A DNA stretch of 64,000 nucleotides from Azolla caroliniana (lineage: Eukaryota > Plantae > Polypodiophyta): positions 2,976,001-3,040,000 of the forward strand of contig JBHGNT010000001.1 in the NCBI GenBank assembly GCA_043228905.1, given 5' to 3'. Under the pieces are notes generated by a model, which was given only the letters and a program-made list of their open reading frames with translations, made no database searches and was not told where the DNA came from. Position 1 is the stretch's first letter; each line of letters opens with the position of its first letter. This document shows positions 13,805-37,821 of the stretch, piece by piece. Made by a program: the position numbers and the translations under genes.

Positions 13805-14252
13805 TATTTATCGATGGAGTAAGCTTCTCAATGTTGTTGCAGGATTCGGATCGGCGTATACCCTTTTCATGGCAAATCAGGCGGAGATGGTTGTCAGACA
13901 CCTCCGAGCCTCACACTCACTTAACAACTAATGGATGATTAAGCACAATATCTCTCTCAAGCTCGCTCTCATAGACAATAGGGTAATGAATGTAGACAAC
14001 AAGAGTAATGAATATGTTTATTAACCCTCTTTGCTAAGAGGTCTAGCACCAACAAGGAAGAGAGATTAGTGTTCTCTAACTAAACACTTCACTAATCTCT
14101 CTTAAGCTTAAAGGTTACAAGGAGGAGGAGAGGATGCTCTAGCTCTTAATCACTTAGGAGATCTTTACAAATGGGAGAACCCCCACAAAGCCACTATTAT
14201 GTGGCTTATATAGCTTTCACGTTTAGGGTATGGGCATTTCACACTTGGACGT

Positions 14253-14940
14253 TGTCGTAAAGAAAACCGGCCATAGGCGGAATCAAAGAAAAAGGCGCAT
14301 GAACCGGCTCCTACACGGGTGGACGGGAGGATTGATATATTGTACATAATTCGTAATTAGGGCGATTGGTGTAAATACTAGGTAGCACATTTATTAGGGG
14401 ATTTTGTGCGTATCTCTGTCGACAGGGGCAGGGAATAAAGCAGTTTGGCTAAGGAAAAGGGGGCACCCCCTTTGGGGGAACTATTTAAGGAGGGAGAGGA
14501 GGAAGGAATAGGTATCGCGCGCTAGGGAGGACGAAGTGCTGCTGCAGATCTGAGTGCCGAGCTCTCTCTTCTCCTCCGGCCGTCGGTCTCTGTAGGTCAG
14601 AAGCTCGCTGCCTCTGCTTCGTGGACAGCCCGTGCACTTCCAGTAGAGGCTCTCCCCCTTTTTGTTTGTTTCTAGGAGTCGAGCGAGTGTTGTCTGTGTG
14701 TGTGAATAGGATCCCCGTGTCGGGTCCATCGCCGCCTTGCCGGTTGTAACTGTCAGAGTCGTATTCTCTTGTTATTGTAAACTCTTGTTATTGAAATCGA
14801 GTGTTGCGTTCTATATCTCTCCTTCTCGCTTCGCGTATCTACAAATCTCTCTCGCTCTCTGTCTGTCTGTCTCTCTTGCTCCTCGGTTCAAGCCCTCGTG
14901 GTCCCGCCCCTTCTACACGCGCGCGCGTAACTTCGCGACA
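14253..14940 (+). repeat. 5' LTR of B
   Basis: Matches 25279-25437 plus 37156-37696, a few percent diverged. Confidence 0.93.
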
Positions 14941-14944
14941 TCTT

Positions 14945-14962
14945 TGGTGAACCCGACGTGAA
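14945..14962 (+). promoter_or_regulatory. Primer binding site complementary to the tRNA-Trp 3' end
   Basis: TGGTGAACCCGACGTGAA, 4 nt after the LTR end. Confidence 0.85.
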
Positions 14963-14985
14963 CGGGGCGGCAAAGGAGTCGAAAG

Positions 14986-17119
14986 ATGAGGGGATCGGAG
15001 CTAGCAGAGGCAATGGCGGTGGCCGTCGACCGATTGGTGAGCGCTCGTGAGGGGACGGGTACCCTCGATAGAACCATTGAATCGATCGTCAGCTCTATAG
15101 GCCGTTTCGGAGGGAAAGACGCCAAGAGTTATTTGGAGGTTTACCGGGCCGAAATGATCATGAGGGATATCCCAGTGGACAGGCGGTTGTCCGGATTCCC
15201 TCAGGTGGTGACGTCGGGCATCCACGCGGAGGTGCTCGAGGTGTTGGCCGGATGCCAGACTTGCGAGGAGTTCGAGTTGCAGCTCCTCAAGAAGTACGGG
15301 TTTGACGACTCGCTTCGGCTGTCGAGGTGGGACTTCATGGCGTGGGTGGAAAGCCCCGGAAAGGGGAAGAACACATCGGTGCTCCTCCAGGAGTTCGAAA
15401 AACGGTTTGCGCGGCTGTCGACGTTGGACCGGACGGTGCTCGAAACAAGTCGAGTACTACTATTTGTCAAGTCGGTGGACGCACTCGACAGGGAAAAGGT
15501 GGGTCCCCTATTGGAAACGGACGAGGGGCTCACGGCAGACTGGGCCGTGGTAAAACGGGTCTGCAGCCGTTTCGACAAACGGCGCGATTGGAGCGACGGA
15601 AGCTCGTTGGGGTCAGGGCCGGTCCCGGGGAGGAGGCTCGAGGAGCCGGTATCGGTGCCGGCTGGTAGGAAGGAAGAGACCCGAATCTGGCCAAACTCGG
15701 GGTCGGCATCGAACGACGTGGTCAGAGGCCCATCCGGAGGAGCGGCTCTGGAGGAGCGGCTCTGGAGGAGCTGACATAGATGGTGCACGACCTGCAGATC
15801 ACACAGGCCCGGAGAGACAGCGGCGAACAACCTCGCGACCAGAGGCTCCCGGCTGGGTAGCGGTGCATGTGGTGTGACGCGATCGGTCACATTCGGAAGG
15901 ATTGCGCGGATTTCGTTGACGCGCTCAGGACCAACGTGGTGTTCCTCTGGAACGGGCGTATGCACGCGAGCGAGACCCGGAGAGACCTAGAACTGAATAC
16001 GGGGTGTGACGGAATGAAGAGGTTGATGGAAGAGGCCACGACACGGCACGTCGAAGCCGTTAACTACTCAGTGTCGGCGGGAATTCCGGTCGGGGGTGAT
16101 GAGACCCGGAAGGCGAAGGACTCCAGATTCTGGCCGCTAGTGCTAGAAGGCCTCTCCGGAGTTTGGATGAAGAAGGAAGAGGCGGACCGCACGGAACAAC
16201 GGATCCAGGAGGTCACCGGTTGGGACGATCCGGTCGAAGAGAAAACGGGCTTCGTAGAAGCCGCTTGTCAGAACTACGAGGTTCTGGTGGAGGACAAACG
16301 GGCAGGAGAGGCCGGAGGGGTCGGCCCCCCGAGAAGGTATGAGACCCGGTTCGGACCGAAACCGACCGGTGCCGGCAACCCAGGCGCGTCGGACGGAAAG
16401 AAGCAGGCGGGGTTTCGGTTGACCATCGAGATCAAAAGGACCACAGACCTGCGAAAGGTCCTGGAGGAACGTATCCTCGACAACAAAGTGGAGTTGTCAT
16501 TGCGGGAGGTGCTGGGAATCGCCAAGAGGGAGTTTCACGACTCTATCGTAGACTTGGTGAAGTGGAAGAGGCTCTCGACGAAGCCGGAACCGGAGAAGCC
16601 GGTGGAGGTGCGGACCACGCACCTGGAAGACGAAGCCCTAGAAGACGAGTTGGCGGGAAGCCACTACAGGAAGCTGCATTGGGCCAGGGCAAAAACGGAA
16701 ACCCCTGTACGGATCGGCAACATTCTGGAACCGGTGGTGGCGTTGGTAACCATGGATCCGAAATCAACCTGATGTCCATGGATTTCTACAAGAAGGGTAA
16801 ATGGCCGATCAACACCAAGCACGGTTGGAAGATACAGGCAGCGACGCGCGCCACGGAAGAACTGCATGGGGCTTGTCCAAACGTACGGGTGAAAATCGGC
16901 GATGTCGAGATCGACCAGCACTTCTTCGTGCAAGAGATGTCCTCGCATCTCGTTATACTAGGAGAGCCATATATCACAGCGGCACGGATGGAGAACGGTT
17001 TAGCCTATGCAAGAGTCAAGAGCCAGGATGGGCGTCACTCGGTCCAATTCCTAACAGTGCGACCAAACCACGAGCGTAACCACGAGGCCCTCGGCGGCGA
17101 AACCCGAGGGGATTTTTAG
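14986..17119 (+). pseudogene. Gag-protease ORF of B
   Basis: Gag N-terminus (SIGRFGGKDAKSYLEVY), CMWCDAIGHIRKDC knuckle, linker VLEERILDNKVELSLREVLG, protease VALVNHGSEINLMS...VILGEPY; broken by a 14-bp duplication near 15736-15763 and a frameshift near 16745. Confidence 0.85.
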
Positions 17120-17175
17120 AGAGGGCTATCAAGGCGTGGGGCCGCGATAGTCCGGACACCCGGAAAGAACCCCAC
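17110..17175 (+). promoter_or_regulatory. Putative -1 frameshift signal, gag-pro to RT-RH-IN of B
   Basis: G GAT TTT followed by TAG; 6-nt spacer; stem GGGCTATC/GATAGTCC; loop GTGGGG complementary to CCCCAC at 17170-17175; the -1 frame is open to 17574. Confidence 0.75.
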
Positions 17176-17931
17176 AAATGTACAGTACCGAAGAAGACAT
17201 GTACCATAGGTAGGGAATTTTGGTTCTCCTACAACGAAGGTTGTACTATAACCAGCGTCAGCGGCCGGGAGAGGAAGCGAGCGGAGGAGCGGCTCAGGGG
17301 ATGCGGAGTCCTCTTCCCCGACGAAGACATCAACGGCGTCGTGGAGGCGGTCTCTTTTGACGACACCTTGGGCGAATTGCGAAAGGTGATCAGTGAAGAC
17401 CTTAGAGAAGACTGGACCGTTCTGGTAGGGTCGATGGGAATGTACGAAGTCATCGCGGACTTTGGGGAAAGGATTGAGTCGGATCGGACGGCCCGTGTGG
17501 ATACAAAGTACAAGACTATGGACCGAAAGGTGAGGCCAATCGCGGCACCCTTGCCGGAGGGCAACGAGGAGTAGATAAAAGGGGTTGTGTCGGACCCAAG
17601 TTTACGGAATCTGGTTGGCATAGGATAGGGCACTGGTTCACCGACATAACGCTACTCGAGCTCAAGGTCGGTGGGGGCGGCTTCCTACTACCGGCGAAGG
17701 AGGACCGATTTCGGAGAATGCTCGGGAGGCACGGCAAGGCTTTAGCATTCTCACCGGAGGAGATCGGGTGCATAGACCCGACAATTGTCGAACCGATGGT
17801 GATCTTCACGGTACCGCATGTACTGTGGAATCTCAAGCCGATTCCGGTGCCGAGAGCTCATATCCCGAAGTTGATGGAGCTCCTGGAGCAAAAGGTGGAG
17901 ATGGGCATCCTCGAACCGTTGAGTGCCCCGT
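17116..17931 (+). pseudogene. Pol of B, part 1 (linker and RT start)
   Basis: TKYKTMDRKVRPIAAPLP, ALAFSPEEIGCIDPTIVEPMVIFTVPHVLW, GILEPLSAP; continues as YSNRW at 22528. Confidence 0.85.
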
Positions 17932-19923
17932 TGTCGAGGTGTTCCTCTCGTGCATGTAGAAGGGGCGGGACCGCGTGGATCTTGGACTAGGGAGTAGAGG
18001 AGAAAGGATAGGACATGATATGGAGGCTTAGCTCAAGAGGAGAAGAGGAAAGAATAAGACCACGACATCGAAGGAGATATCGGCGGAGGCAAGATGCTCA
18101 ACAAGTTATGTTAAAACAACGAATGGTTACAACAGTGGTGGCCGCCATGGCCGCACCAAAATGACTATCCGAAAACCCTAAAGGGGAACCCAAGAAGAAA
18201 ACCCTAACCGAAACCCTAACCCTAAACGAAAAGGGGAAGAGGGAGAACCCCTCGACTAAGTGGTATACCTTACTCGCACAAAATAGGCAACCCCTTCATA
18301 AGTGACCCCTCCCCTCCTTTTATAGCCCAAGGAGGGAGGGACCTTACAATGTGGGACAAAAATGTCCCCTCTCTTTCTATACACCATATCCTAGCATACA
18401 TGTGCACATGTTGCACACCACCGACTTGCCCCTTCCACCCCGGTTTCCGCCTATGGACGAAAATCTTCACGACATCCACCCACACCAAACCGCACATCCA
18501 CCGGTATGTGCCAAGAAAGGAAAAGGGTGAGAGATTTCGTCCACGGTGATCAACCGGGTCTTTCGCCTTACCGGCACCCAACCTTCTTGCCGGTCCCTTG
18601 CTGGCGCCGATCCGTCTTGCCGGCCCCGACCCGCCGACTCCATCCGATCCACCACGTCCACCGCGTTTCCCCGAACCGTCGGCTCCATCCGATCCGCCAT
18701 ATCCGACGTTCACGCCTTCTTCTTCGACCGACCCTCCCGAACGCCATTGCCGATCTGGTCACTCTGTTTGCTCGACGGATTCCGCCCCTCGCGTACCGCT
18801 TGTGTTCTATCTCCGGCTCGATCCTCTCTTCGTCTCGAACACCTCGTGCCAATTCCCTCCGTTCCGCGCTCACCTTCTGTAGGCTCTTCCCGTGTGCCCT
18901 TGTTGTCTCCCGAACATGCGGTCGTTCTTCGGTCCCTCGGTGACCTCATTACGCGCTCCTCGCTTCTCCCTCGCTCGCCGTGCTCTCTCGCCGTAGAGCG
19001 TACCGTCATCCCGGCCACCATGTCAGTGTCCTTCGCGACTCCCGTTACCGCTTTCCCAGACACAATCCTTCGTTCACGCCGATCACGCCCGTCTCGCTTT
19101 GTTGATCTTGGCGTCTCGTCGCGCCGCCCGTCGTCCCGCACTTGCCTCTTGAAGGGTTTCCCCGACCGTCATCGTCGGTCACTCGTTGCGGCTCTTCCGG
19201 GTGCATGTTTGCTTCTTGGCCCTTCGCCGACCGTAGTGCACGCTCCGTTCTACGCCGTAATGCATTTGCGTTACATACTTCCCTCGTTGTAGTCCCGACC
19301 TCCGTGTCGGCCTCTTCGTACTTTCTTGCCGTAGCCCCTTTCGACTCCGGCTTGCCGTCTTGGCCGTGCTCATCCGTCTTCATGCACCGGGTACCCGTTC
19401 TAGTGGCCTCGTCAGTTCCGGTCTCCGACTCCTCACCGCCACCCGTCGTGTCTCCGGTCTTATGTTGATCCGCAACCGCCGAAGTCTCAAGGATAGATGT
19501 GGAGGGCTCCTCTCGCTCTCGGTCTTCTGCCAAGTCGTAATCACCGTGCCTGGTTAGCTTCCTTCTCGCGCTCATCGGCTCCCACCGGGTGTTGTGGCCC
19601 GTTCGCCTCGACCTCCAACTGTGCCAACTTTGCCTTCGCCCGGATCGGTCTCGGCCGATCGAGTTCCGGTTAGGTCGGCTCCCTTCTGTAATCGTAACCG
19701 GCCGGTAGATGTTTGTCCGAACAAATCCGACCTTGCCTGCTCTTCTTCGGTTCGGGCCCGGTTGACCAGACCCTGCTCCAATGTTCTTCCGCATCGTCTT
19801 CCGGTCATGTCGGATTATCGACCGGTCCATCTTCCGGTCGGGTCGGTTCCCGACTCTCTCCTCTTTGCCGCTCCCGACCTCTCCGTCGATCCTCTCGTAT
19901 ATGCCCGTTCCGAGCCTCGCATC

Positions 19924-20511
19924 TGTTGGTAGACAGGTCCCTCCGGATGGGAAGGGAGAAGAAACGGTATGAACCGAATGAGGAGAACCCGACTTCGGAG
20001 AGTCGGATGGTGTAGGCCCGGTATGAACCGGATGAGGAGTACCCGACTACGGAGAGTCGGATGGAGCACATCGAGGCTACATTTGTAAATAGCCGAAAAG
20101 TCATATTAGTATAAATATGACTTAGGGCAAACTTTTAGTAGCTGTTGTCATTCTTGTTGTTATTCTTTCTTGTTGGTGCAAGAAGAAATTAGAGCGCGTA
20201 ACTGTACAGAGAGAGAGAGAGAGAGACGAGGTCGTTGCCTCTGTTGTAACCGCCGCCTGTGGCGAAGATCTGAGAACACGAGGTCGTTGCCTTAGTGATC
20301 TCACTATTGTATATTTCTGCATAGTGACAGTTTGCAGCTCGTGGGCTGCCGTGGTTTTTCCCCTATTTTGGGGTTTTCCACGTATACCTCCTGTGTACCA
20401 TTTCTCCTCTTCTTTTTCTTTTGTGTCGCGTTTCATTACCTGTTTTCTGTGTATGAAAAGAATCTCGGTTGTGGCCGAGCGTCGGACATTAGGAACGCCG
20501 AGTTTCCAACA
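19924..20511 (+). mobile_element. Solo Copia LTR (relative of copies 1 and 2)
   Basis: TGTTG...CAACA with a perfect 5-bp TSD GCATC (19919-19923, 20512-20516); shares AAATATGACTTAGGGCAAAC and CTCGGTTGTGGCCGAG with the Copia LTRs. Confidence 0.92.
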
Positions 20512-20996
20512 GCATCCTCATCTTCGTACGTGTTCGCTCCGGGCCACACCTGCTCACGGCTACCGCCCTTCTCTCCGGTCTTATGTTGGCATTCGAGCGC
20601 AACCGCCGTAGTCTCCGGTCTCGGTGTCGAGAGGTCTTGCCTCCGTCCGCTATGACCTTCCTCGTCGTCGTTTCGATTGTCCGCTTTGCCGCCGCCACCT
20701 TCCGTCTCTCCGGTCTCACGTGGGCTCTCGGGGCCGACTGCCGAAGTCTCTTGAATAGGTGTGGGAAAAGTCCCGATACCGTTACTCGCCGATGCCATGT
20801 TCGTAGCCACCTTCGTTCGGACGCCGTGGTCCGTGGCTATCTCTTCCTCGTTCTCTTCGTCGCCGTGGTAGGCCGCCTTGCCGCCACCACCGCCCGTCGC
20901 TCTAGGTCTCACGCCGGCACTCGGGCCGGCCGCCGGAGCCTCTAAGACCGGTGTGGGTAAGGACTCGGCACCGCCACTCGTTGTGTCAGTAGCCGC

Positions 20997-21962
20997 TTAC
21001 GTCCGGTTGTCGTTGTCCACGGCTACCCCATCTCCGACTCCGCAAACCTCGATTACGCTTGCCACCATCTCTCCCATGCCGTCGTCTCGGTTGCCCGCCT
21101 TGCCGCTGCCACCGTCCGTCACTCTAGGTCTCACACCGGCTCTCGGGCCGGATGCCGGAGTCTCTAGGACCGGTGTGTGTAAGGTCGCGGCACCGCCGCT
21201 TGTCCGCTCCTCACTCAATGTTTCGGGCCGCCATGTCCCGAATCCGTAGTTACCGGCCTCCATGGCCGTCCCTTCACCGCAAGGCAAGAGGGTCGCTTGC
21301 TCCGCACCCTCTCCTATCTCGCCGTCGTACGCTCTCCCGGCCTCTGTATAGACCCCGCCTTCTACGTCTAGGGAGGCTTCTTCCTCCGTAACCTCCGATC
21401 GCCTCCGGCCCGACTCCATAATAAGCCCTTCTTCGGCTCCGATTTTCGCCTTCACAAGCTCGCATGCCTCTCGTATTAGCGCTTCTAGGTCGAGCTCCTC
21501 CGAACCGTTTTGCGTTGAGCTCTCTTCCGGCGGCAGTGCGTACTCACTCGCCGCTCTCTCTTCTCTGCCGCTCGCGGGCCACGTTGTTGCCGGCCGCTCC
21601 CCAACGGGTTGCCGGCATACCCACTCCGGTTTCACGTATCCGCACGCTTCCAATAGGGCTACCTCCAAGGACACCCACGACTTGTGAGCTTCTCGTAGCT
21701 CCTTGACCTCCTTGTGCACCGATGCGGCCGCCACTCGAGGAAAATACTCTAGCCGCATCTCCTCGTCCACGCCCCCTTTCGCCATCTCGGCCTCGTACGC
21801 CTCCAAGAACCTCGGGACATCGTCCTCGTTGAATCGGCCGACTCGATCGACCACCCTTTCGACGGCTTGTTGAGCCGCATCTCGCTTTGCCATCTTCCGT
21901 CCGGCTTCCATCACGATTTTTGCCATCATCTCCTCGAAGTCCAAGTCTTCTTCCATCTCCAT
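20997..21962 (-). CDS. Gag N-terminal-derived protein of C with an acidic, repeat-containing extension (321 aa)
   Basis: ATG about 15 nt after the PBS; VERVVDRVGRFNEDDVPRFLEAYEAEM aligns with B Gag IESIVSSIGRFGGKDAKSYLEVYRAEM. Confidence 0.7.
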   Translation of the reverse strand: MEMEEDLDFEEMMAKIVMEAGRKMAKRDAAQQAVERVVDRVGRFNEDDVPRFLEAYEAEMAKGGVDEEMRLEYFPRVAAASVHKEVKELREAHKSWVSLEVALLEACGYVKPEWVCRQPVGERPATTWPASGREERAASEYALPPEESSTQNGSEELDLEALIREACELVKAKIGAEEGLIMESGRRRSEVTEEEASLDVEGGVYTEAGRAYDGEIGEGAEQATLLPCGEGTAMEAGNYGFGTWRPETLSEERTSGGAATLHTPVLETPASGPRAGVRPRVTDGGSGKAGNRDDGMGEMVASVIEVCGVGDGVAVDNDNRT

Positions 21963-22524
21963 GCTCCCTTGCCGCCCTTCACGTCGGGTTCACCAAATAT
22001 GTCGAGGTGTTCCTCGCGTGCGTGTAGAAGGGGCGGGACCGCGGGGATCTTGGACTAGGGAGTAGAGGAGAAAGGATAGGACATGATATGGAGGCTTAGC
22101 TCAAGAGGAGAAGAGGAAAGAATAAGACCACGACATCGAAGGAGAGATCGGCGGAGGCAAGATGCTCAACAAGTTATGTTAAAACAACGAATGGTTACAA
22201 CAGTGGTGGCCGCCATGGCCGCACCAAAATGACTATCCGAAAACCCTAAAGGGGAACCCAAGAAGAAAACCCTAAACGAAAAGGGGAAGAGGGAGAACCC
22301 CTCGACTAAGTGGTATACCTTACTCACACAAAATAGGCAACCCCTTCATAAGTGACCCCTCCCCTCCTTTTATAGCCCAAGGAGGGAGGGACCTTACAAT
22401 GTGGGACAAAAATGTCCCCTCTCTTTCTATACACCATATCCTAGCATACATGTGCGCATGTTGCACACCACCGACTTGCCCCTTCCACCCCGGTTTCCGC
22501 CTATGGACGAAAATCTTCACGACA

Positions 22525-25140
22525 CCGTATTCGAATCGGTGGTTTACGGTGCCGAAGAAGAACGGCACGTTGTGCTTCATTCAGGACCTGCAACCGGTCA
22601 ACAAGGTGACCATCCGTAATGTAGGAATCGGACCGACCATAGACGAGTTCGCGGAGGCCTTCGCTGGAAGGTCGATCTATTCTGTCGGTGATCTGTACTC
22701 GGGGTACGATCAGTTCCAACTAGCCGTGGAGAGCAGAGACATTACGACGATGCGGACTCCTCTCGGCCTAGTGCGGATGTGTACCCTGCCACAAGGAGGG
22801 ACGAACTCAGTGGCTCACATGGTGAACGCAATGAACAAAGTGCTCAGGAATTGTATCCCAGACATCACCATGTCATTCTTAGATGACATCCCGATCAGGG
22901 GATGCCCGGTGGAGAAAAAGGACGAGGCAATCGGGTCGGACGGATGTCGGAATTTCGTGGCGTCCCACATCGATGACTGCGAGAAGGTGATGTAGAGACT
23001 AGAAGGCGTGAGGCTCACCTTCTCCGGGGAAAAGTCGGCCTTCGGGCAATCAGAGATCATGGTCGTCGGGCACCTATGCGGACCATACGGTCGGAAACCG
23101 TCTCCAGCCAAGGTGGAAGCCATCTCCGCAATGAAGCATGACTCCAATTCGGTCACGAAGGTCCAAAGATTCTTGGGAGCATACGCGTTCTACCACATCT
23201 GGATCCCGCACTACGCACATGTCACGGAACCCCTCTACGGACTATTGAAAAAGGGGCGTAGCTTTGAGTGGAGGACGGAGCACACGGAGTTGGTACGGAG
23301 ACTAAAGGAGGCGCTTACGGTAGCGTCGGCTCTCCGTAATGCGGTTTACGGCAAGGATGTTCCCATCTGCGTGACGGTGGACACCAGCCCGACCGGGATC
23401 GGGTGGGTAATCAGTCAGGAGGACAAGGACGGTGTACGATTCCCGATTCGGTTCGGGGCGAAGGTATTGAGCGAGCGGCAGCGAGGATACGCCCAAGTTA
23501 AGCGCGAACTTTGGGGTGTCGTTTCGGCAGTCAAGGCCGACAAGGATTATCTGATCGGGATGGAGGTGATCATCGAGACGGACTGCCTGCCGATACTTGG
23601 CATGGTTTCTGGATGCGCGACGCCGGACCTAGCAATGCTCCGGAGGATAGCGTACATTAAGTCCCTGAACCCGGAGATACGGCACATCTCCGGAAAGGAC
23701 AACGCCATGGCTGACATGCTTTCGAGGGCAAGGTTCAACGACGAAGACGGCATGGTTTCAGATGACGAAGAAGTCGGCGAGGACTTCTTCGGGTCGGCTA
23801 ACGTAACGACGAGGAAAGGGAACACTCTGGCGCTTAACAAATTTGACGAAAGCAGGTACGACGGGGAGTGGCTCCAAATCGGGAGGTTCCTACAAACGAT
23901 GACGTCGGACACAGCATGGGCGAGAGAGGATGTGAGCCGGGTACGGAAGAAGGCATACCGATTCTTCCTGCGGGACGGGTGCATATGGAGGCACCCAAAG
24001 AAGAGAAGCGGCATCCCACTCCGAGTAGTGGCAAAGAAAGAAGAACAGGGGAAACTACTCGCGGCATTTCACGAGAGCCCCTAGGCCGGACACCGCGGAA
24101 CGTGGGCCACGTTCAAGAAGCTGAAGGAGAAGTACTGGTGGCCGGGGCTGTACCAAGACGTGCATCAGTTCGTAACGACTTGCGAAAGCTGTCAGATGCA
24201 CTCCGTAGTCTGACACCGAGACGAGCTACACCCGACCTACCTGCCTATGGTCCATTTCAAGCGGATGGTGGACTTGGTGACGATGCCGATGGGGGTAAGA
24301 CAAATGCGATACCTGGTGATTGCACGGGAAGACTTAACGAACCAGGTGGAAGGTCGTGCACTACAAAGCAAGACAACCACGGCAGTATGCTAATTCCTGA
24401 TCGAAGAAGTAGTGTGTCGGTATGGGTGCGTCGGGAGGATCGTGGCGGACCGAGGAGAGCTGGATGCGCGGGAGGCTGAGGAGCTATTCGACCGGCTAGG
24501 CGTCAAACTCTCCCTCACTACGGCGTACAATCCGGAAGCAAACGTAAAAGGTGGAACGTGGGCACGGGCCGATCGTAAAGGCGTTGGTGCGTGCATGCGG
24601 AGGGCAGGTCGGGAATTGGCCGCAGCTCCTTCCTTACGCACTATGGGCGGACCGAACTACGCACAGTTCGGCGACAGGGTTTATGCCGGTAGAGCTGATG
24701 TACGGACAGAAGCCGATCATGCCGGTGGAACAGACGGTTTCTTCATGGGCGCCGGTAGATTCGAAGGACGAGATGAGCTGGGAGGAGTTGCTGGCGGCGC
24801 GGATTCGGCAACTCGAGCGGAGGCCAGAGGACGTGATACAGGCAAAGGAAAAGTTGCGAGCGGCAAGGGAGCGGAACAAGACCCAGTTCAACCGGACGCA
24901 CCAGTTGCGACCAAAGAAGATCGAGGAAGGCGACTGGGTCTTGGTATACGACAGCAACCTCGACAATTAGCACAAGGCGGTGCGAAAGTTCGCTAGGAGA
25001 TGGTTCGGGCCCTACACGGTGACGAGCGCGAACAACAACAGCACACATACCACCTCGCTGAACTCGACGGTACACGGTTAGCAGTGCCGGTGGCTGGGAA
25101 GTGGATCAAAGAGTTCAAGAAGCGGTTCGAAGACGAGCCG
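22525..25140 (+). pseudogene. Pol of B, part 2 (RT, RNase H, integrase)
   Basis: WFTVPKKNG..FIQDLQPVN, DLYSGYDQ, LPQGGTNS, FLDD, VDTSPTGIGW, ETDCLP, NAMADMLSR, IVADRGE, TTAYNPEAN, RWFGPY; several stops; no chromodomain seen. Confidence 0.92.
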
Positions 25141-25278
25141 GAGCCGGCGAGCGAGAGTAACGACGACGATCAATTCGGGTCCAGTGGAGAATCAGAGAAC
25201 GACGAGTGAAGCCGGTTTTCTTCGGTGTCTACCCGTCTCTAGCGCATGCCGATGGATGCGCGGTTTGGTGGGGGTGGA

Positions 25279-25437
25279 TGTCGTAAAGAAAACCGGCCAT
25301 AGGCGGAATCAAAGAAAAAGGCGCATGAATCGGCTCTTACACGGGTGGACGCGAGGATTGATATATTGTACATAATTCGTAATTAGGGCGACTGGTGTAA
25401 ATACTAGGTAGCACATTTATTAGGGGATTTTGTGCGT
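25279..25437 (+). repeat. 3' LTR of B, left piece
   Basis: Matches 14253-14411; interrupted by E. Confidence 0.92.
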
Positions 25438-26131
25438 TGTCGCGTTGTTACACACTGTCGTGAAGAAAACCGTCCACAAGCGGAATCGGTGCACCGGAGC
25501 GTAGGAACCGGCTCTTCATGCACGTGCGCCTTCTGTTGTACATAGGAGATCCTACGTAGGCAGATTCGGTAGGTAGGAAGTAAAGGGGAAATGGCTCCTT
25601 CCTTGCCTATAAAAGGAGGGAGACGAGGAGGGGCGAAGGGATCACGGAGAGTCGAGGACGAAGTGCTGTCGGTTTGTGTGCGAAGGCTTCTCTCTCTCTC
25701 TGGTTCGCAAACTCCATAGCTTCCTTCTGTGCAGGTTTCGGGAGGCTCGCGCTGCTCTGAGGAATGCCCAAGTGCTTCCGGCAGCACCTCCAACCTACTC
25801 CTTCCTTTCGGCAGCAATGAAGACCCGAATGATGAAGACCCGGTTTTCGGATCCGGATGATGAAGACCCCGGCTACGGAGCCGGATGATGAAGACCCGGT
25901 TTCGGATCCGGATGATGAAGACCCCGGCTACGGAGCCGGATGACGAATGTACCCGGAGAGAGATCCGGATGCAGGGACATATTTGTGAATATGTTTGCCA
26001 AGGGCCCTCGAGGCTATATTTGTAAATAGCCCGAAAGTCATATGTGTATAAATATGACTTAGGGCAAACAGTTTGTGTGTTGTTGCTCATTTTTCTGTTT
26101 TCCACTTAGAGGGAGCGAAGTGAGAGCAGCC

Positions 26132-26163
<32 letters not shown>

Positions 26164-26433
26164 GAGGTCGACGCCTCTGTGTAATACCGCCGCCTGTGGC
26201 GAGGACAGCGAGCTCAAGGTCGTCGCCTTGCAGCTCGCCATTGTACATTCCCTGCGGATAGTGATAGTTGGAGTCTTGCACTCCCGTGGTTTTTCCCGTC
26301 TAGGGTTTTCCACGCTAAACCCTGTGCATTCGAGTCTCTCTCTGTGTTTTGATTTACTTCTGCATTGATTCGTGTTTCCTCGGTTGTGGCCGAGAGGTGA
26401 AAGTTTTTTGGAAGCGTCCCATTCCTAACAATC

Positions 26434-26445
26434 TGGTATCAGAGC
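26434..26445 (+). promoter_or_regulatory. Primer binding site, initiator tRNA-Met
   Basis: TGGTATCAGAGC, 3 nt after the LTR end. Confidence 0.95.
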
Positions 26446-26461
26446 GATTGCAGTGCAGAAA

Positions 26462-29400
26462 ATGGAAGGCGGCAGCAGCGGGCAGCCGGGGATGATGGTG
26501 CTGAATGCGCAGAACTACGCCGACTGGAAGATAAAGATGGAGGATCTGCTCATTGTTCGGGACCTGTATGAACCGATCGACAAGTCGGAAATACCCAAGG
26601 GGGTACTTGAGACGGAATGGAGGCTTCTGAACCGGAAAGCCGTTGCAACCATTCGGCAATACGTCGACGTGAGCGTTCTACAACATGTGGCGAACGACAC
26701 CAACGCATATGAGATGTGGCAGAAGCTGTGGGGCCTCAACGAGAGGAAGAATGCGTTGAACCGGACCTCCCTGATGAGGAAGATAGTGAACCTCAAGTAC
26801 CGGGACGGCGAGAGTATGGTGGAACACGTAAGCACGTTCATGGGATTCGTGAACCAGCTTGCGGCGATCAAGTTCCCGTTGGAGGATGCAATGCAAGCCA
26901 TCATGCTAATGTGTACATTGCCGGAAAGCTGGGAGAACTTGGTGGTGACTCTCAGCACCTCCTGCACCGAAGATAACTTGTCCTTACAAACGGTAAAGAC
27001 AAGCATTTTGAACGAAGAAGCGCGTCGGAGAGATAAAGAACCGGCCTCCGATCCGAAGATGCTGCTTACCGAATCGGATCGGGGAAGACAACGGAACCGG
27101 AGTCCGCAAAGACGGGAGAAGTCGGGGACCCGGTCGCAGTCAAGAGGAAGGCCCACATGCTTCCACTGTGGGAAGTCGGGGCACTTCCGAAAGAATTGTC
27201 AGCATTACCGAAAAGACAACGGAGCCGACGACACCGATTCGAAGAAGTCTTCGGAACGGAACGGTGCTTACCGGGGAGCCACGGACCGGAATGGTTCGGA
27301 TCGGCGAGGGCAGGACCGGAAAGGAACGACGGCACTCACGGCAAGTGAAGAGGAGATCATGCTCATCACCGAAGAAGGTGAACTAAACATTGTCGGCGAT
27401 GAGACTACCTGGGTGGTCGATTCCGGAGCGTCGTTCCACCTGACCCCGGAAAGAAGATACTTCTCATCCTATACAGCCGGTGAGCATGGCTGCGTTCGGA
27501 TGGGAAATGAAGGTACGTGCCGGATTGCCGGCATAGGAGACGTGTGGTTGACAACCTCGACCGGATGCAAAATGTTGCTGAAGGATGTCCGACACGTTCC
27601 GGAGGTTCGATTGAACCTGATTTCGGCCGGGAGGCTAGACGATGAAGGCTACACAGGTAGCATCCGGAACTGCGTAATGAAGTTCAACAAGGGGAGCCTG
27701 ATAGTGGCTCGGGCCCGGAAAGTCAACACACTGTACCTTATGAATGCCTGGTTGTGTCCGGAGGAGTTGAACGTGGCAGTCGATACTGCCGGTGAGCTCT
27801 GGCATAAGAGACTGTGCCACATGAGTGAGAAGGGGATGAAGAGGCTTGCAGAAGACAACCTTATTCCAGTGAAGCATGTGCACCTGGAGAAGTGCACCGA
27901 TTGCCTGGCCGGTAAGCAGAACCGAACCTCCTTCCACTCAAGGCCACCGACGAGACGTAGCGCACCATTGGAGTTGGTGCACACTGACGTGTGTCAAGTA
28001 GAAACGAAGTCACATGGCGGAGCCCAGTACTTCGTGACATTCATTGATGACCACAGCCGGAAGCTGTGGACGGCACCGTTGAAGAAAAAGGACCAAGTGT
28101 TGTGCGTTTTCAAAGAACTCCACGCGAGAGTGGAAAGGGAATCCGGCAAGAAGCTGAAAGCGATACGAGCGGATAACGGAGGGGAATATCGGGGGCAGTT
28201 CGAGGAGTACTGTCGCTCAAAGGGAATCCGGCTCGAGTTTACTGTGTCGAAGACGCCGGAACTGAACGGGCTGGCCGAGAGGATGAACCGGACCATAATG
28301 GAGAGGGTCCGGAGTATGCTGGCGCATGCGAAATTACCCAAGGGGTTTTGGGCTGAGGCAATGTCGACGGCGACATACGTGATAAACATATCACCCTCAG
28401 TACCTTTGGACGGAGACACGCCGCAGAGAGTGTGGACCGGCAGGGAAGTATCCTACCGGCATCTGAAGGTGTTCGGGTGTCTCGCATATGTGCATGTGGC
28501 AAAGGACCGGAGAGGAAAGCTAGATCCAAAGACCCGGCCATGCATATTCCTCGGTTACGGCAATGACGAGTTCGGCTACCGAGTATGGGACCCGGTCGAC
28601 GAAAAGATATTCCGGAGTCGTGATATCATCTTCATGGAGGACAAGACACTCGCCGACTGGGAGTCGGAGAAGAAGATGAAGAGCTCCAAGTCGACCGGTG
28701 AGGATCAACTCTACGAGGAGCAGTCCCGACCGGCAAGGGACCGGTTAGCACTCGAGGATCCGGCCGAAGACGGTGAAGAAACAGAACCGGCTGAGGAAGA
28801 TGAAACTGATACCGGAACCGGCCCCGATCCCGAAATGGATTCGGATGAAGAGGAAACGGAGGAGCCGGTTACCGAAGCTCCGGAACGGAGATATCCTCTA
28901 AGAGAGAGAAGGGCCCCCCGGAGATTTCCGGAACCAGAGCACGTGCTGCTAACCGACGAGGGGAAGCCGGAGAGTTTTGAAGAAGCAAAGCTTGACACCC
29001 ATAGCCGCAGGTGGTTAAGTGCCATGCAGGAGGAGATGGATTCCTTGCATGAGAACCACACATATGAACTTGTGGAGTTGCCGAAAGGAAAGCGGGCACT
29101 TCGAAACAAGTGGGTGTTCAAGCTGAAACCGGGAGATGCCGGAAACCCCCCGAGATACAAAGCCAGGATCGTGGTGAAGGGGTTCCAGCAGAGGAAGGGC
29201 GTCGACTTCGACGAGATATTTGCCCCGGTAGTGAAGATGACCTCCATCCGGACGGTGCTGAGCATAGCGGCAAGCATGGACCTCGAGGTAGAACAGATGG
29301 ACGTGAAGACGGCATTCCTTCACGGTGACCTCGAAGAAGAGATCTACATGCAGCAACCGGAAGGATTCGAGAAGAAAGGAAAGGAGCACCTGGTATGCCG

Positions 29401-30535
29401 GTTGAAGAAGAGCCTTTACGGACTGAAGCAGGCTCCCCGGCAATGGTACCAGAAGTTCGACTCTTTCATGACCGACGAAGGGTACCACAAAACGCAATCC
29501 GATCACTGCGTGTTTGTGAAGAAGTTCGAAGGAGGAGACTTTCTAATACTCCTCCTGTACGTGGACGACATGTTGATCGTCGGACGGGACCAGGTCAAGA
29601 TACGGATGCTGAAGAAAGCGCTTCACCGAACCTTCTCAATGAAGGACCTGGGTCCAGCGAGGCAAATACTAGGGATGCACATCATCCGGGACCGGAAGAA
29701 GAAGCAGTTGTGGCTGTCACAGGAGAAGTACGTGACAAAGGTGCTTCACCGGTTCAACATGTCGGAAGCAAGACCGGTCGGGTCAACCCTCCCGGCAAAC
29801 TGCAGGTTGTCCAGCAAGCAAAGCCCCAAGACAAAGGTTGAGAAGGAGGACATGATGAAAGTACCATATGCCTCTGCCGTCGGAAGCTTGATGTACGCAA
29901 TGGTGTGTACAAGACCGGACATAGGATATGCAGTCGGAGTGGTGAGCCGGTACATGAGCAATCCCGGCAAAGAGCACTGGAACGCGGCCAAGTGGATACT
30001 CCGATACCTGAAGGGCACGGCAAACGTGTGCCTCCGATTCGGCTCCGGTAAGCCCGAACTCGACGGCTTTACCGATTCGGATATGTCGGCTGATGCAGAT
30101 ACCAGCCGGTCCACATCAGGGTATGTGATGACGTATGCAGGGGGAGCTGTTTCGTGGCAGTCGAGGCTGCAGAAGACGGTTGCGTTGTCGACCACGGAGG
30201 CGGAGTACATGGCGGCTGTTGAAGCCGGCAAGGAAATAATATGGATGAAGGACTTCATTAGAGAGCTCGGTATCCGGCAGGAGGAGTACCGACTCTACTG
30301 CGACAGTCAAAGTGCCATCCACCTTGCGAAGAACGCGGCCTATCACTCACGGACGAAGCACATCCAGCGAAGATATCACTGGATCCGGGAAAGGATAGAA
30401 GACCAGGAGTTTGTGCTGACGAAGATCCACACGGACGAGAATGGGTCAGATATGTTGACCAAAGTGCTCACACCCGACAAGCTGGAAGCGTGCCGGAAGA
30501 GGGTCGGACTGGAAAGACATCCCATGCCGAAGTGA
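26462..30535 (+). CDS. Copia Gag-Pol polyprotein (1357 aa from the first ATG)
   Basis: NYADWKIKM, CFHCGKSGHFRKNC, WVVDSGAS, integrase HHCC and D-D-E, YVDD and RNase H; no stops; the ORF-track start at 26453 is a GTG. Confidence 0.96.
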   Translation: MEGGSSGQPGMMVLNAQNYADWKIKMEDLLIVRDLYEPIDKSEIPKGVLETEWRLLNRKAVATIRQYVDVSVLQHVANDTNAYEMWQKLWGLNERKNALNRTSLMRKIVNLKYRDGESMVEHVSTFMGFVNQLAAIKFPLEDAMQAIMLMCTLPESWENLVVTLSTSCTEDNLSLQTVKTSILNEEARRRDKEPASDPKMLLTESDRGRQRNRSPQRREKSGTRSQSRGRPTCFHCGKSGHFRKNCQHYRKDNGADDTDSKKSSERNGAYRGATDRNGSDRRGQDRKGTTALTASEEEIMLITEEGELNIVGDETTWVVDSGASFHLTPERRYFSSYTAGEHGCVRMGNEGTCRIAGIGDVWLTTSTGCKMLLKDVRHVPEVRLNLISAGRLDDEGYTGSIRNCVMKFNKGSLIVARARKVNTLYLMNAWLCPEELNVAVDTAGELWHKRLCHMSEKGMKRLAEDNLIPVKHVHLEKCTDCLAGKQNRTSFHSRPPTRRSAPLELVHTDVCQVETKSHGGAQYFVTFIDDHSRKLWTAPLKKKDQVLCVFKELHARVERESGKKLKAIRADNGGEYRGQFEEYCRSKGIRLEFTVSKTPELNGLAERMNRTIMERVRSMLAHAKLPKGFWAEAMSTATYVINISPSVPLDGDTPQRVWTGREVSYRHLKVFGCLAYVHVAKDRRGKLDPKTRPCIFLGYGNDEFGYRVWDPVDEKIFRSRDIIFMEDKTLADWESEKKMKSSKSTGEDQLYEEQSRPARDRLALEDPAEDGEETEPAEEDETDTGTGPDPEMDSDEEETEEPVTEAPERRYPLRERRAPRRFPEPEHVLLTDEGKPESFEEAKLDTHSRRWLSAMQEEMDSLHENHTYELVELPKGKRALRNKWVFKLKPGDAGNPPRYKARIVVKGFQQRKGVDFDEIFAPVVKMTSIRTVLSIAASMDLEVEQMDVKTAFLHGDLEEEIYMQQPEGFEKKGKEHLVCRLKKSLYGLKQAPRQWYQKFDSFMTDEGYHKTQSDHCVFVKKFEGGDFLILLLYVDDMLIVGRDQVKIRMLKKALHRTFSMKDLGPARQILGMHIIRDRKKKQLWLSQEKYVTKVLHRFNMSEARPVGSTLPANCRLSSKQSPKTKVEKEDMMKVPYASAVGSLMYAMVCTRPDIGYAVGVVSRYMSNPGKEHWNAAKWILRYLKGTANVCLRFGSGKPELDGFTDSDMSADADTSRSTSGYVMTYAGGAVSWQSRLQKTVALSTTEAEYMAAVEAGKEIIWMKDFIRELGIRQEEYRLYCDSQSAIHLAKNAAYHSRTKHIQRRYHWIRERIEDQEFVLTKIHTDENGSDMLTKVLTPDKLEACRKRVGLERHPMPK

Positions 30536-30545
30536 AGGGGGAGTT

Positions 30546-31206
30546 TGTTGGGATTACGGTCCCTCCGGATGGGATGGTCAGATGTCCGGGAATCGGGAAT
30601 GAAGACCCGAATGATGAAGACCCGGTTTTCGGATCCGGATGATGAAGACCCCGGCTACGGAGCCGGATGACGAAGACCCGGTTTCGGATCCGGATGATGA
30701 AGACCCCGGCTACGGAGCCGGATGACGAATGTACCCGGAGAGAGATCCGGATGCGGGGACATATTTGTGAATATGTTTGCCAAGGGCCCTCGAGGCTATA
30801 TTTGTAAATAGCCCGAAATTCATGTGTATAAATATGACTTAGGGCAAACAGTTTGTGTGTTGTTGCTCATTTTTCTGTTTTCCACTTAGAGGGAGCGAAG
30901 TGAGAGCAGCCGAGAGAGAGAGAGAGAGAGAGAAAGGAAGAGGTCGACGCCTCTGTGTAATACCACCGCCTGTGGCGAGGATAGCGAGCTCAAGGTCGTC
31001 GCCTTGCAGCTCGCCATTGTACATTCCCTGTGGATAGTGATAGTTGGAGTCTTGCACTCCCGTGGTTTTTCCCGTCTAGGGTTTTCCACGCTAAACCCTG
31101 TGCATTCGAGTCTCTCTCTGTGTTTTGATTTACTTCTGCATTGATTCGTGTTTCCTCGGTTGTGGCCGAGAGGTGAAAGTTTTTTGGAAGCGTCCCATTC
31201 CTAACA
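30546..31206 (+). repeat. 3' LTR of Copia copy 2 with a U3 array of 27-28 bp units
   Basis: TGTTG...TAACA; GA(T/C)GAAGACCC units at about 30600-30750. Confidence 0.95.
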
Positions 31207-34200
31207 ATGTTGTACATAGGAGATCCTAGGCAGGCAGATTCGGTAGGTAGGAAGTAAAGGGGAAACGGCTCCTTCCTTGCCTATAAAAGAAGGGAGACGA
31301 GGAGGGGCGAAGGGATCGCGGAGAGTCGAGGACGAAGTGCTGTCGGTTTGTGTGCGAAGGCTTCTCTCTCTCTCTGGTTCGCAAACTCCATAGCTTCCTT
31401 CTGTGCCGGTTTCGGGAGGCTCGCGCTGCTCTAAAGAATGCCCGAGTGCTTCCGGTAGCACCTCCAACCTACTCCTTCCTTTCTGTGCGTTTACGAACAG
31501 GTATCAGCATCTATTCGCCGGCCTGTTCGGTTGTAACCGACCTCGTGTTTTGTTGTTTGTCTTTGTTAATACATACATACATTCGTGTCTCTCTGTGTCG
31601 CTATCCCACTCGCGTCTTTGTGTCGAAGGGCCGTGTCCCTGTGAATCTACTCTCGCACGTAGTGGGTCTCTTCTCCTTTCTCTCTTGCTCTTAGGTACAG
31701 GACCCCCGAGGTCCCGCCTCATTCCACGCATCCGCGAGGAATACCTCAACAGCGCGTGCGTGGAGAAAGGCGGGACCACGGGGGTCTTGGACTAGGGAGT
31801 GACGGAGCGTAGGAAGTCGTACTTCACCGTTTCCGAGGCATCCTAGGAGCACACCGGAAGCAACCGAAGGGAGAGAGAGAAAGAGAGGGAGCGCGTGCTT
31901 GACACCGACTCGCACACACACACACACACACAGGCCGACCCGACTCACGCCCTTATGTACAGGAAACGCAAGAAAGAGGAAGCACCCGACACCAACAGAG
32001 ACACGAATATACACAGACAGACGCAAATGTATATATATAAAAGGAAGAATACATTCCCGGCTTCGAGCCGGACCAAGGTAGGTTACAGTAGTCGTCGGCT
32101 GCCAAGACGTCAGTCGGGGAGCTCACGGGCTTGTTGCGCCGAGCGGGGTCTTGCGCAAGAGACGAGCTGAAGCAAACCCTAAGCGAATACGAAGGGGGGA
32201 GAAGAAGAAGAAGAAGAAGAGTAACTAACCCTAAATCTAACGGTATACCCTCTAACGCAAAATGGGCAACCCTTTCACAAAGGCCGCTCCCTTCCTTTTA
32301 TAGAACAAGGAGAGGGATGTGTTACAATGTGGGATAAATCCCGACTTACATGGGATCGTCTGTCCCGACTTGACTACTCTTCGGCGCCATAAAGGCGCCC
32401 TCGTTATTCACACTAAATGTACAAGGGTGAGCACACACGCTACACCCCGCCGATGTAGCCAATGTTTCCCGGTTTCCGCCTCTGGCCGAAATTCTTCACG
32501 ACATCCGCCCCCACCTAACCGCACGTCCACAGTACGTGCCAAATCCGGTGAAGGGTCAGAGATTTCGGCCGTGAGAAATCGGTCTTCCGTGATCCGCATC
32601 CCGGCTTGCTACCGGTTTGCTCCGTCGGCTTCAATTCTTCCTTCGTGCTTACCTCCCCGTAGGCTCGTTCGACCCGTCGATCTCCGTAGTACGCGTACTT
32701 CCGTTGGCCCTTGTTCGGCCGTATGAACACCCGCTCCCCGCCATATGCCCGATGTCCTTCGCTGGAGGAAAGCCTGTAGTGGCCCGCTTGGCCTCCGTTG
32801 ATCATTCGTGTTGTCCTGATTGCCGCCCCATGCTGCTTCGCGTTGCCTTCGTCCTCTCGCCGCCACCTTCCTTCTCCATGCTCTTTACATCACCGCGTCG
32901 GCTCGAACCGCCATGGTCTCCGGAACGGTGTGGAGGATGCTTCATGGCCTTCTACGCGCTACCTCCGAACCGCGCAACCTATCTCCGCGCTCGCCTTTCC
33001 GCTCTGGCACCTCCGTGTGCCACATACCCTCGTCCGTTGTTTGGCACTACCTGTGCCGTACTCCGGTTCATTGCACGCCTTGTCGGCCCCTTTCCCGGCT
33101 AGATCGTGCATCGCCGCTCACCCACATACCAGTGTCCTCCGCATCCGAGGAACACCCCGTAGTAGCCCGCTTGGCCCTTCCCGTCTTCGTGTTGTTGCAA
33201 CAGGTCCCGAGTCTTCCGCTTGCCGTCGTCCCCTCGCCCCACCAGCTTGTCACCCTGGCTTGCCGTGTCAATCTTCGCTACTTCGACGGAGCTACCGAGA
33301 TCTACGAAGCGAGTGTGGAGGATCCTCCTCCGGCCTCTTTTGCCATCCCATGACTCCGACCCTGTGTAGTCCACTAGGCACTTGTCACCTCGTTCCTGGC
33401 ACCTCCCTTGTGTCGTCTTCCGCTTCCTTTCTTCGGCACCGCCCATGCCGAACACTGTCCCGTAGTCACGCTTCGATCCGGCCCGCGATGGCCACTTGCG
33501 AGACTCTTGTTCCGTCCCAGGTGTGCCTTTCCGGGCCAACACACCTCCTCGTGTTTGCCCCTACTGGCTCCTTTCGAAACTTCGTGTCGTCGGGTCTCGT
33601 TCCCTGCCGCCATCGTCCTTCTCCCTAGGTCTCACGTTACCACGTTGGCCGAACTACCGGAGTCTCCGGATCGGTGTGAGGGTCCCATAGGACCAGACTC
33701 CGTTTCTATGCTTGCCGAGATTCGAGTGTCTTTTGTTTGAGTCCCTCCCGGACTCTCCTCGTGTCTTCCGCATAGTCGGGTCCCGTTTCCCGCCGCCACC
33801 AACCTTCTCTCTCGGTCTCATGTTGCCACGTTGGCCGAACTGCCGGAGTCTCTAGTTAAGTGTGGGGATCCCGTAGGACTGAACTTCCATTCACCCACTA
33901 AACTTGCCAGAAGGTCTGATTCGGTTCGTAGCCGCCCTGCCGGCCTGATACCTTCTTTCTCTGCTTCCGTCGTCCGGTCACGTTCACCTGCCGCCACCGT
34001 CCCTTCCTATAGGACTCACGCCAGCTCTCGGGCTGACCGCCAGATCGGTGTGAGGATCTCCGTAGACCGCCCATCCGTGGCCCTTTTCCTTCATCACCTC
34101 GCCGCCACCGTCTGTATCTTGGTCTTACGTCGGCCGCGTTGCCGACTGCCGGAGTCTCTAGAACCGGTGTGAAGGATCCTCCTTGGGCCTCCGATTTGTC

Positions 34201-35649
34201 TTCCTGACCCTGTCCCGGGTCGTCCTTTTCCGCATGCCGAGAGGGCGTTTTGTTCCGCACCCTCTCCCGTGGTACCGACGTACCGTCTCCTCAGCCTCTC
34301 CGTAGGCCTGCTCTCTTCCTCCCTCCCGGAATGGTCATCCGGGAGTCCGCTCCGCCCGGTTCTCGTCCAGGTCTGTTCGTCCTTCTCTGTATTGCCGGGT
34401 CCCGTTCTCCTGTCGCCATCGTCCTCTCCTATAGGACTCACGCCGGCACTCGGGTCGGCAGCCGGATCATTGTAAGGATCTCCATAGGACCGGCTTTCAT
34501 TCTCCTGTACATCTCCCGAACTCGTCGTCGCTCTCCTTTCTGCGTTCCCGCCTCCATCCTCCATCTCTTTCGGTCTCACGTTGCCACGTCGGCCGAACTG
34601 CCGAAGTCTCTGGATAGGACGTGGGGTAACCGGTTTTGTAACTTCTTTCGGCGACTCGTCCAGACCACTGCCCCTTTTAGTGGTGTCGGTGGATAGCATC
34701 CGCTCTGTGATCGATCAAGCCCCGCCGGAGCTTGATTCTCCAATGTCCGGAGTTTCGGCTCCAATGCCGATCTTGCCAGACTCTTTCCGAACCTTTGATC
34801 ACCCTCCTTCCAACTCTCGACCTTCGCCCGGTCGGTCTTTCTCCCCATGTAAAAGAGGGCGGCTCGTCCCACACCCTCTCCCGTATCGGCACCTTTATGC
34901 CGAATCCGGCCCCAATTGAACAATCCACGACCGGATCACGCTCCACCCGTATCGGAGCGTCGTGTGGTTCTGTCCCCGGTCGGGTCGTTCCTTGGTCTCC
35001 TCGTCGACCCTTTCGTTGGCCATCTCCCATCCATCTTCGCTGGCATCGTGCCAGGACTCCTCGGTACTACCATCCATCTCCTCGGTCTTACATGGGCATA
35101 CCGGCCCGAATGCCGAGTTCTCCGGAATCGGGTCCGTGGGCTTTCGTCCGCTCCTTCCCCGTATCGTATCGTCGGTGATTCTTGGTCTTTCGCCGCCGCC
35201 TTCCTCCGCTTGGGACTCACGTGGGCACTCGGGCCCGACTGTCATCGTCTCGGGAGCAAGTGTGGGAAGACACAAAGAATCGCCCGTCCGTTTTACGCCC
35301 TTGTCCGTAGCCACCGACTCTTCATGGTGGCGGTCGTCTTCTTACCGATCGCGCAAGCCCCGCCTGGGCTTGCTTCTCCGATTTCCGGGGTTTCGGGCTG
35401 ACACGCCCGAAATCGTTGGTCCCAACTACCCAGTTCCGCGATCTGTATCTCGGCCTCGTCCTTGGTCGTTCTATCTCCGCAAGTCAAGAGGGCGTTTTGT
35501 TCCGCACCCTCTCCCGTCGTACCGTCGTACCGATCTTCCGTCGTCGCGTGGGGCAAGTCCGTCTCCTCGGTCTCGGCTTGCGGCCTCGATCTTCCCTCTT
35601 CCTCGAGCATCGCCTCGAGAGCTGTGTACGCCTCCGCAATCCTGGCCCC

Positions 35650-36351: not shown

Positions 36352-36543
36352 CCTCCCTTGCCGCCTTTCATGTCGGGTTGTTACGTGCGTGCGTGGAGAA
36401 AGGCGGGATCACGGGGGTCTTGGACTAGGGAGTGACGGAGCGTAGGAAGTCGTACTTCACCGTTTCCAGGGCATCCCAGGAGCACACCGGAAGCAACCGA
36501 AGGGAGAGAGAGAAAGAGAGGGAGCGCGCGCTTGACACCGACT

Positions 36544-36578
<35 letters not shown>

Positions 36579-37155: not shown

Positions 37156-37696
37156 GCATATCTCTATCGACAGGGATAGGGAATAATGCAGTTTGGCTAA
37201 GGAAAAGGGAGCACCCCCTTTGGGGGAACTATTTAAGGAGGGAGAGGAGGAAGGAACAGGTATCGCGCGCTAGGGAGGACGAAGTGCTGCTGCAGATCTG
37301 AGTGTCGACCTCTCTCTTCTCCTCCGGTCGTCGGTCTCTGTAGGTCGGAAGCTCGTTGCCTCTGCTTCGTGGTCAGCCCGTGCGCTTCCAGCAGAAGCTC
37401 TGGACCCCCTTTTTGTTTGTTTCTGGGAGTCGAGCGAGTGCTGTCTGTGTGTGTGAATAGGATCCCCGTGTCGGGTCCATCGCCGCCTTGCCGGTTGTAA
37501 CCGTCAGAGTCGTATTCTCTTGTTATTGTAAACTCTTGTTATTGAAATCGAGTGTTGCGTTCTATATCTCTCATTCTCGCTTCACGTATCTACAAATCTC
37601 TCTCGCTCTCTGTCTCTCTGTCTCTCTCTCTTGCTCCTCGGTTCAAGACCCCCGTGGTCCTGCCCCTTCGACACGCGCGCGCGTAACTTCGCGACA
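37156..37696 (+). repeat. 3' LTR of B, right piece
   Basis: Matches 14408-14940 and ends CGACA. Confidence 0.92.
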
Positions 37697-37821
37697 ACGT
37701 CTCTTTGCTTCTTTTCCTCTTGTCGTTTCCTCTTCGTACTACGTCCTTGTTGATGCACTCTTATTTGTGATTGGTTGTGTTATTATCCCGGCGCTTAACA
37801 CCTTCCAACACCACTAAAGAG

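Follow-up and report, generated by a model that had tools for sequence, protein, structure and literature searches.

A probable -1 frameshift signal after the protease domain in a Ty3/Gypsy retrotransposon lineage of Azolla

In a stretch of Azolla caroliniana DNA of 64,000 nucleotides (the window), a retrotransposon is met in which the frame for Gag and protease (PR) is closed by a stop codon, and reverse transcriptase, RNase H and integrase (RT-RH-IN) follow in the -1 frame. The question raised by this locus is how the second frame could be translated, and whether the junction between the two is a device of a whole family or a lesion of one copy.

The element and its junction

The element is a decayed Ty3/Gypsy LTR retrotransposon extending from 14253 to 37696 of the window, with a length of about 7.1 kb when nested insertions are subtracted. 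It is composed of the following parts.

14249..14252, + strand: left target-site duplication ACGT (NCGN type), the same four bases standing at 37697-37700
14253..14940, + strand: 5' LTR (TGT...ACA), 97.5% against 25279-25437 and 93.9% against 37156-37696
14945..14961, + strand: primer-binding site (PBS) complementary to the 3' end of tRNA-Trp(CCA), with its complement in host tRNA-Trp genes
14986..17119, + strand: ORF1 gag-pro with zinc knuckle, DUF4100 and aspartic protease, broken by a stop (15772-15774) and frame changes
16740..17100, + strand: protease domain; a frame change in the window copy divides the family motif LVDHGSEIN
17110..17937, + strand: ORF2 pol, part 1, linker and beginning of RT, read in the -1 frame, with a premature stop at 17572-17574
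22525..25278, + strand: ORF2 pol, remainder (RT, RNase H, integrase), broken, after a nested insertion
25279..25437, + strand: 3' LTR, first part
37156..37700, + strand: 3' LTR, remainder, and right target-site duplication ACGT (37697-37700)

The window copy is dead, both ORFs being broken by stops, frame changes and insertions. The insertion inside RT (17938-22524) is a related element with gag on the - strand at 20997-21989, and the one inside the 3' LTR (25438-37155) comprises a Copia element, whose ORF (26429-30535) has 1368 codons, and another LTR element. Tandem repeats of 354 bp (40548-41610) and 193 bp (44412-45290) are also found in the window. In relatives of the element ORF1 is present as open frames of 710-771 codons, and the gag-pro and pol ORFs overlap with no spacer between them.

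By its NCGN duplication, tRNA-Trp PBS and domain order the element appears to be of the Phygy type. A 4-bp NCGN target duplication and a tRNA-Trp primer site are given as marks of Phygy (Neumann et al. 2019, PMC6317226), and other shared features are a compact build of non-chromovirus Ty3/gypsy character, the lack of a chromodomain and homologues in P. patens. ACGT flanks the window element on both sides, and NCGN was found in the relatives with resolved ends. The stretch complementary to the PBS was present in all three host tRNA-Trp loci scanned; these genes were found with a loosened 3'-end pattern, a stricter first pattern having given none. Clusters of the tRNA-Trp 3' pattern were noticed at G000:C8:17796786-17823371 (about 1.2 kb apart) and C16:4989495-5105657, possibly tandem tRNA arrays. 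The length listed for Phygy is 7656-9968 bp (7.7-10.0 kb), whereas family A measures about 7.1-7.3 kb and sister families 7.3-8.4 kb and more; homologues here extend to fern and liverwort, unlike Phygy as described (PMC6317226). In the pol frames of three relatives RT, RH and IN were recognised, and the same frames gave no protease family and no Chromo family at E 0.1.

The C-terminal domain of ORF1 is probably retropepsin-like, as suggested by sub-threshold Pfam matches in 9 and 6 of 20 homologues (best E 0.0036), by a PDB sequence search in which the sole match was a weak one to Ty3 Gag-Pol (E 0.69), and by Atlas neighbours in both features and fold, among which fungal relatives are present. 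AlphaFold applied to the protease alignment returned a pLDDT of 42, too low to use. The protease motif is D-H-G (16740-16772 in the window) in nearly all homologues, not D-T/S-G, with D-S-G in one. Of 30 family A copies, 8 have it 129-130 residues ahead of the stop; the other 22 are broken between motif and stop or give no match. Among protein homologues, including those from Physcomitrium (P. patens), Adiantum and Riccia, 64 of 120 end 115-150 residues past the motif; the C-terminus of these 64 is DF in 34 and PL, a few residues past xF, in 14.

The junction itself is made up of six features.

17110..17116, + strand: slippery heptamer G_GAU_UUU (GGATTTT), read in the sequence and conserved in the family
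17117..17122, + strand: ORF1 stop TAG (17117-17119) plus 3 nt, a 6-nt spacer
17123..17130, + strand: predicted pseudoknot, stem 1, 5' strand, GGGCTATC
17136..17141, + strand: predicted pseudoknot, stem 2, 5' strand, GTGGGG
17146..17153, + strand: predicted pseudoknot, stem 1, 3' strand, GATAGTCC
17170..17175, + strand: predicted pseudoknot, stem 2, 3' strand, CCCCAC

The coordinates of heptamer, stop, spacer and both stems had been reported in a preliminary description of the locus and were all exact on re-reading; the -1 frame, described there as stop-free, is open at 17080-17574 and contains the pol linker YKTMDRKVRP. The H-type pseudoknot proposed at the same time is favoured by modelling, in which the window knot outscores 100 of 100 dinucleotide shuffles, and a knot score of at least 30 was obtained after only this one of nine heptamer-like sites in 14253-17937. 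When 64 nt were folded with nested pairs only, stem 1 was recovered with z -1.9 (7 of 200 shuffles equally stable), and a CCGG/CCGG hairpin in loop 3 of the window copy competed with the base of stem 1. An Rfam search near the site gave no family at threshold and four chance hits.

Conservation of the junction and the competing explanations

The genome search gave 2809 initial candidates; 40 of them were scored, and 30 were retrieved. Altogether 231 loci were examined; the junction was present in 219 of them (162 distinct, in nine families), which are best matches and no random sample, and in none of the other 12. In the eight -1 families of the source genome GGATTTT was found in 113 of 122 distinct copies (29 of 30 in family A), and a stop, be it TAG, TAA or TGA, directly follows the heptamer in 120, though copies and families share ancestry and such counts are not independent. 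In 83 of these 122 non-E copies the -1 frame runs unbroken from the heptamer to the pol linker; no copy offers such a path in the +1 frame, and the remaining 39 are broken ahead of the linker. One continuous gag-pro-pol frame, named in the preliminary description as the contrary case, was met in a single fusion by an extra T, possibly counted among the 83. The junction is family-wide, by which a lesion of one copy is ruled out as its origin; the family has preserved the cassette, which at the window locus is carried by a dead copy.

Similar proportions come from metagenome loci, 68 of 80 being scorable: the linker is in -1 in 53 and in +1 in 2, it is not reached in 10 and the site is missing in 3, many of these contigs being near-identical and hence not independent. 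Their heptamers are GGATTTT (55), GGATTTC (4), GGGTTTT (2), GGTTTTT (2), GGTTTTC (1) and AGATTTT (1); those of divergent relatives (GGATTTC, GGGTTTT and GGTTTTC) are all -1-compatible. Between families A and A2 pol has a dN/dS of 0.075.

Two single copies, L166 (G000:C80) and L109, carry one T more, giving a fused frame of 1803 codons, or one T less, and mutation and assembly error were not told apart in them. Such copies are a point in favour of slippage by RNA polymerase on the T run, which would add one U to some transcripts and fuse the frames with no shift by the ribosome. Such slippage is disfavoured because the run is short, just 5 T and only 3 T in the GGATTTC relatives, and it leaves aside that the knot is placed at ribosome spacing; of the explanations weighed here it is the least probable.

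The pseudoknot was followed through the families by the covariation check that had been suggested for it. Stem 1 was compared over 18 natural junctions, two per family and 16 distinct. In its 8-bp core 124 of 128 cells are paired, and in four core pairs both partners have changed. Covariation scored 0.313, and slid controls did not exceed 0.136; the window copy supplied the structure, and relatedness inflates these counts. As the variable length of loop 3 blocks scoring on a MAFFT alignment, stem 2 was scored per family by script, and its pairing is kept while the sequence changes (GUGGGG/CCCCAC, GUAGGGA/UCCUUGC, GCGAGA/UCUCGC and GGGACA/UGUCCC). Of 29 junction types, 26 have a knot that outscores 100 of 100 shuffles; the other three are equalled by 1, 3 and 6 shuffles. 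Over the 29 types the optimal spacer is 4-7 nt, with 6 nt in the window (criterion 5-9 nt), and in several -1 families stem 1 can be extended so as to leave 4-5 nt. Stem 1 is lost (score 2 bp) in 3 of 30 family A copies, which can be explained by the decay expected of dead copies.

A different route to pol would be splicing of gag-pro to pol in the manner of Ogre, with TTTTTAG as 3' splice site. In families A, A2 and D this stretch resembles an acceptor, an Ogre intron lies at the same PR|RT boundary (PMC6317226), and Riccia gene models unite both frames. The intron, which the preliminary description had set against frameshifting, does not emerge from the DNA: there is no intervening spacer, TAG is replaced by TAA and TGA, and the first AG past the heptamer is complete at nt 3, 5, 7 or 18, in different frames, according to the family, so that a conserved acceptor was not found. 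It is this shifting of the nearest AG between families and frames that disfavours splicing, which is regarded as very improbable. The Riccia joins are scattered. All 25 longer homologues (P0223-P0247) are Riccia sorocarpa gene models in which protease is fused to pol, and in a comparison of protein models alone their joins were seen to bypass the junction and to vary in position; they are likely to be gene-finder introns, that is, annotation artefacts of a frameshifted element.

It could also be supposed that pol has its own translation start, an AUG past the ORF1 stop used by reinitiation or internal entry, and that the RNA structure serves this purpose or RNA packaging. A structured element beside a stop could indeed guide reinitiation. 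The first Met of the pol frame, however, is found at codon 23-112, varying by family, which speaks against reinitiation, and the retention of a -1-compatible heptamer at constant distance from the stem would be left unexplained; this route is given even less credence than splicing, and somewhat more than polymerase slippage.

The junction is thus very likely a programmed -1 frameshift signal, with Gag-PR as the main product and RT-RH-IN requiring a -1 shift. At the level of sequence this reading is carried by overlapping ORFs, a conserved heptamer with a stop behind it, a constant spacer and a pair of stems whose pairing persists across families. G_GAU_UUU is a known G_GA variant of the X_XXY_YYZ heptamers (PMC5009743), and GGAUUUU of PEMV shifts in wheat germ extract, where a nearby stop helps (PMC4737148). 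The general mechanism of -1 frameshifting has been reviewed (PMC5009743, PMC7618472). In the element studied here most ribosomes would terminate at the ORF1 stop and release Gag-PR, and a minority would stall at the pseudoknot with GAU in the P site and UUU in the A site, slip back by one base (GGA UUU) and complete Gag-PR-RT-RH-IN. On this scheme one protease would be produced for every Gag, and the output of RT-RH-IN would equal the shift rate. Synthesis of protease at Gag levels, with RT-RH-IN by frameshift, had been put forward in the preliminary description; the anatomy of the junction supports it, and the protein ratios are what we infer from that anatomy.

Sister clade E and a likely -2 layout

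A deviating layout is found in family E (loci L082-L097, L126-L145 and L212-L231 of the source genome, with the same layout in metagenome loci L282 and L287). Its ORF1 ends in AG_GUU_UUU_GAC_UAG and the -1 frame hits a stop at once. The pol linker lies in +1 (= -2) in 25 of 40 copies and in -1 in none of the 40. The heptamer is GGTTTTT in 36 copies; the other four have AGGTTTT or AGATTTT, which suit a -2 shift less, and these four, one of them young and complete, count against such a shift. The knot has 10+8 bp, starts 5 nt past the heptamer and is compensated in stem 2. In 20 full-length regions, mostly picked for an open ORF1, both ORFs are complete in 10, and in nine of these 10 the LTRs are 99.4-100% alike. 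A divergent metagenome family of the same layout forms one clade with E (support 100/100) in a tree of 29 of 32 rows, three having been omitted because they lacked a linker match or had insufficient length. In this clade pol has a dN/dS of 0.07 at dS 1.1, indicative of purifying selection; the depth of the clade and this ratio therefore mark the layout as old and pol as in use. For the same ratio the idea of clade E as a non-autonomous parasite was rejected as unlikely.

AG_GUU_UUU, of the RG_GUU_UUU type, is the -2 site of PRRSV (PMC7618472, PMC6675879), and in engineered constructs a spacer 1-2 nt below the -1 optimum promotes -2 shifting (PMC3458567). The chance that clade E uses -2 shifting is put at about even. 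Sequence alone cannot separate -2 from +1. Against a -2 shift it counts that the stem 1 extension in several -1 families leaves as short a spacer. Pol of this clade may instead be reached by +1 shifting or by reinitiation, and for the latter the pol frame offers an AUG a few codons upstream. If -2 shifting is accepted, the proposed switch would consist in a change of the site to AG_GUU_UUU and of the spacer from 6 to 5 nt, with the knot retained and -1 turned into a dead end. It is considered a balanced possibility that the whole Phygy lineage of seed-free plants makes RT-RH-IN through pseudoknot-driven shifting after the protease and that one clade was switched from -1 to -2 by the loss of one base.

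A shortened form of family E, measuring about 4.5 kb and with LTRs 99.5% alike, was observed at L188 (G000:C1:22575000-22584900), L081 and L087. Its ORF1 runs into the final pol codons and RT-RH-IN is absent; it is likely a non-autonomous element with Gag-PR only.

Relation to known systems and significance

In alpharetroviruses the protease belongs to the gag frame and the -1 shift takes place after it; the heptamer of Rous sarcoma virus is A_AAU_UUA. The exact heptamer of the dianthovirus RCNMV is G_GAU_UUU. The gag/pol junction of Rous sarcoma virus (Alpharetrovirus) resembles the present one in having the -1 shift just ahead of the first stop and a pseudoknot as stimulator (PMC5009743), and differs from it in heptamer, in lineage and in being that of an enveloped virus; retroviral pro-pol shifts are treated in PMC12789967. 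With the umbravirus PEMV2 and RCNMV a site of the G_GAU_UUU type, a stop at or near its end and the use of plant ribosomes are shared (PMC4737148, PMC5009743). The likeness to dianthoviruses, pointed out in the preliminary description, holds for the heptamer type and the stop and does not extend to the stimulator, which in these viruses is a bulged stem-loop with long-range pairing (PMC5009743) and here a predicted local H-type knot. For clade E the nearest parallel is nsp2TF of PRRSV (Arterivirus), where the 8-nt site is identical, -1 leads to a stop and -2 to a long frame (PMC7618472, PMC6675879). In PRRSV, as described in these sources, no RNA structure takes part and nsp1beta is needed together with a C-rich motif 10 nt downstream, whereas clade E has a predicted pseudoknot 5 nt downstream; its site may work like the arterivirus -2 site but is not a member of that type.

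Among plant elements the split between PR and RT is itself known. Ogre has an intron there and Retand a single stop codon, both with an extra aRH (PMC6317226), in contrast to the overlapping frames, slippery site and knot found here. The layout had been called different from the usual gag/pro-pol split in the preliminary description, which is correct for the -1 signal, new for a plant lineage, and not for the split. The reference table for plants in PMC6317226 has no type in which GAG-PROT overlaps with RT-RH-INT, and Phygy is entered in it with its ORF organisation not determined and no frameshift named. Only +1 cases were given for plant elements with split gag and pol in a 2003 survey (Gao et al. 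2003), as reported in PMC5009743, and frameshifting is named only in general terms in the relevant portion of a 2025 review of plant elements (PMC12786077). A description of this signal was not found in the literature searched, with subscription journals, Repbase and REXdb lying outside the search.

The comparison of copies supports -1 frameshifting after the protease throughout the Phygy-type elements, with a likely -2 offshoot. The gap left by the undetermined layout of Phygy would thereby be filled with a -1 signal that can be tested, and one short cassette becomes available for plant ribosomes in dozens of naturally occurring forms. Protease at Gag levels raises the question of how early processing is restrained, on which the D-H-G motif may bear. 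The -1 and likely -2 cassettes, matched and one base apart, make the spacer-length rule, so far a matter of engineered constructs (PMC3458567), testable in a natural system. If the -2 reading is true, clade E would represent a natural -2 frameshift driven by RNA structure only in an active plant retrotransposon, and thus an evolved test of the mRNA-tension model.
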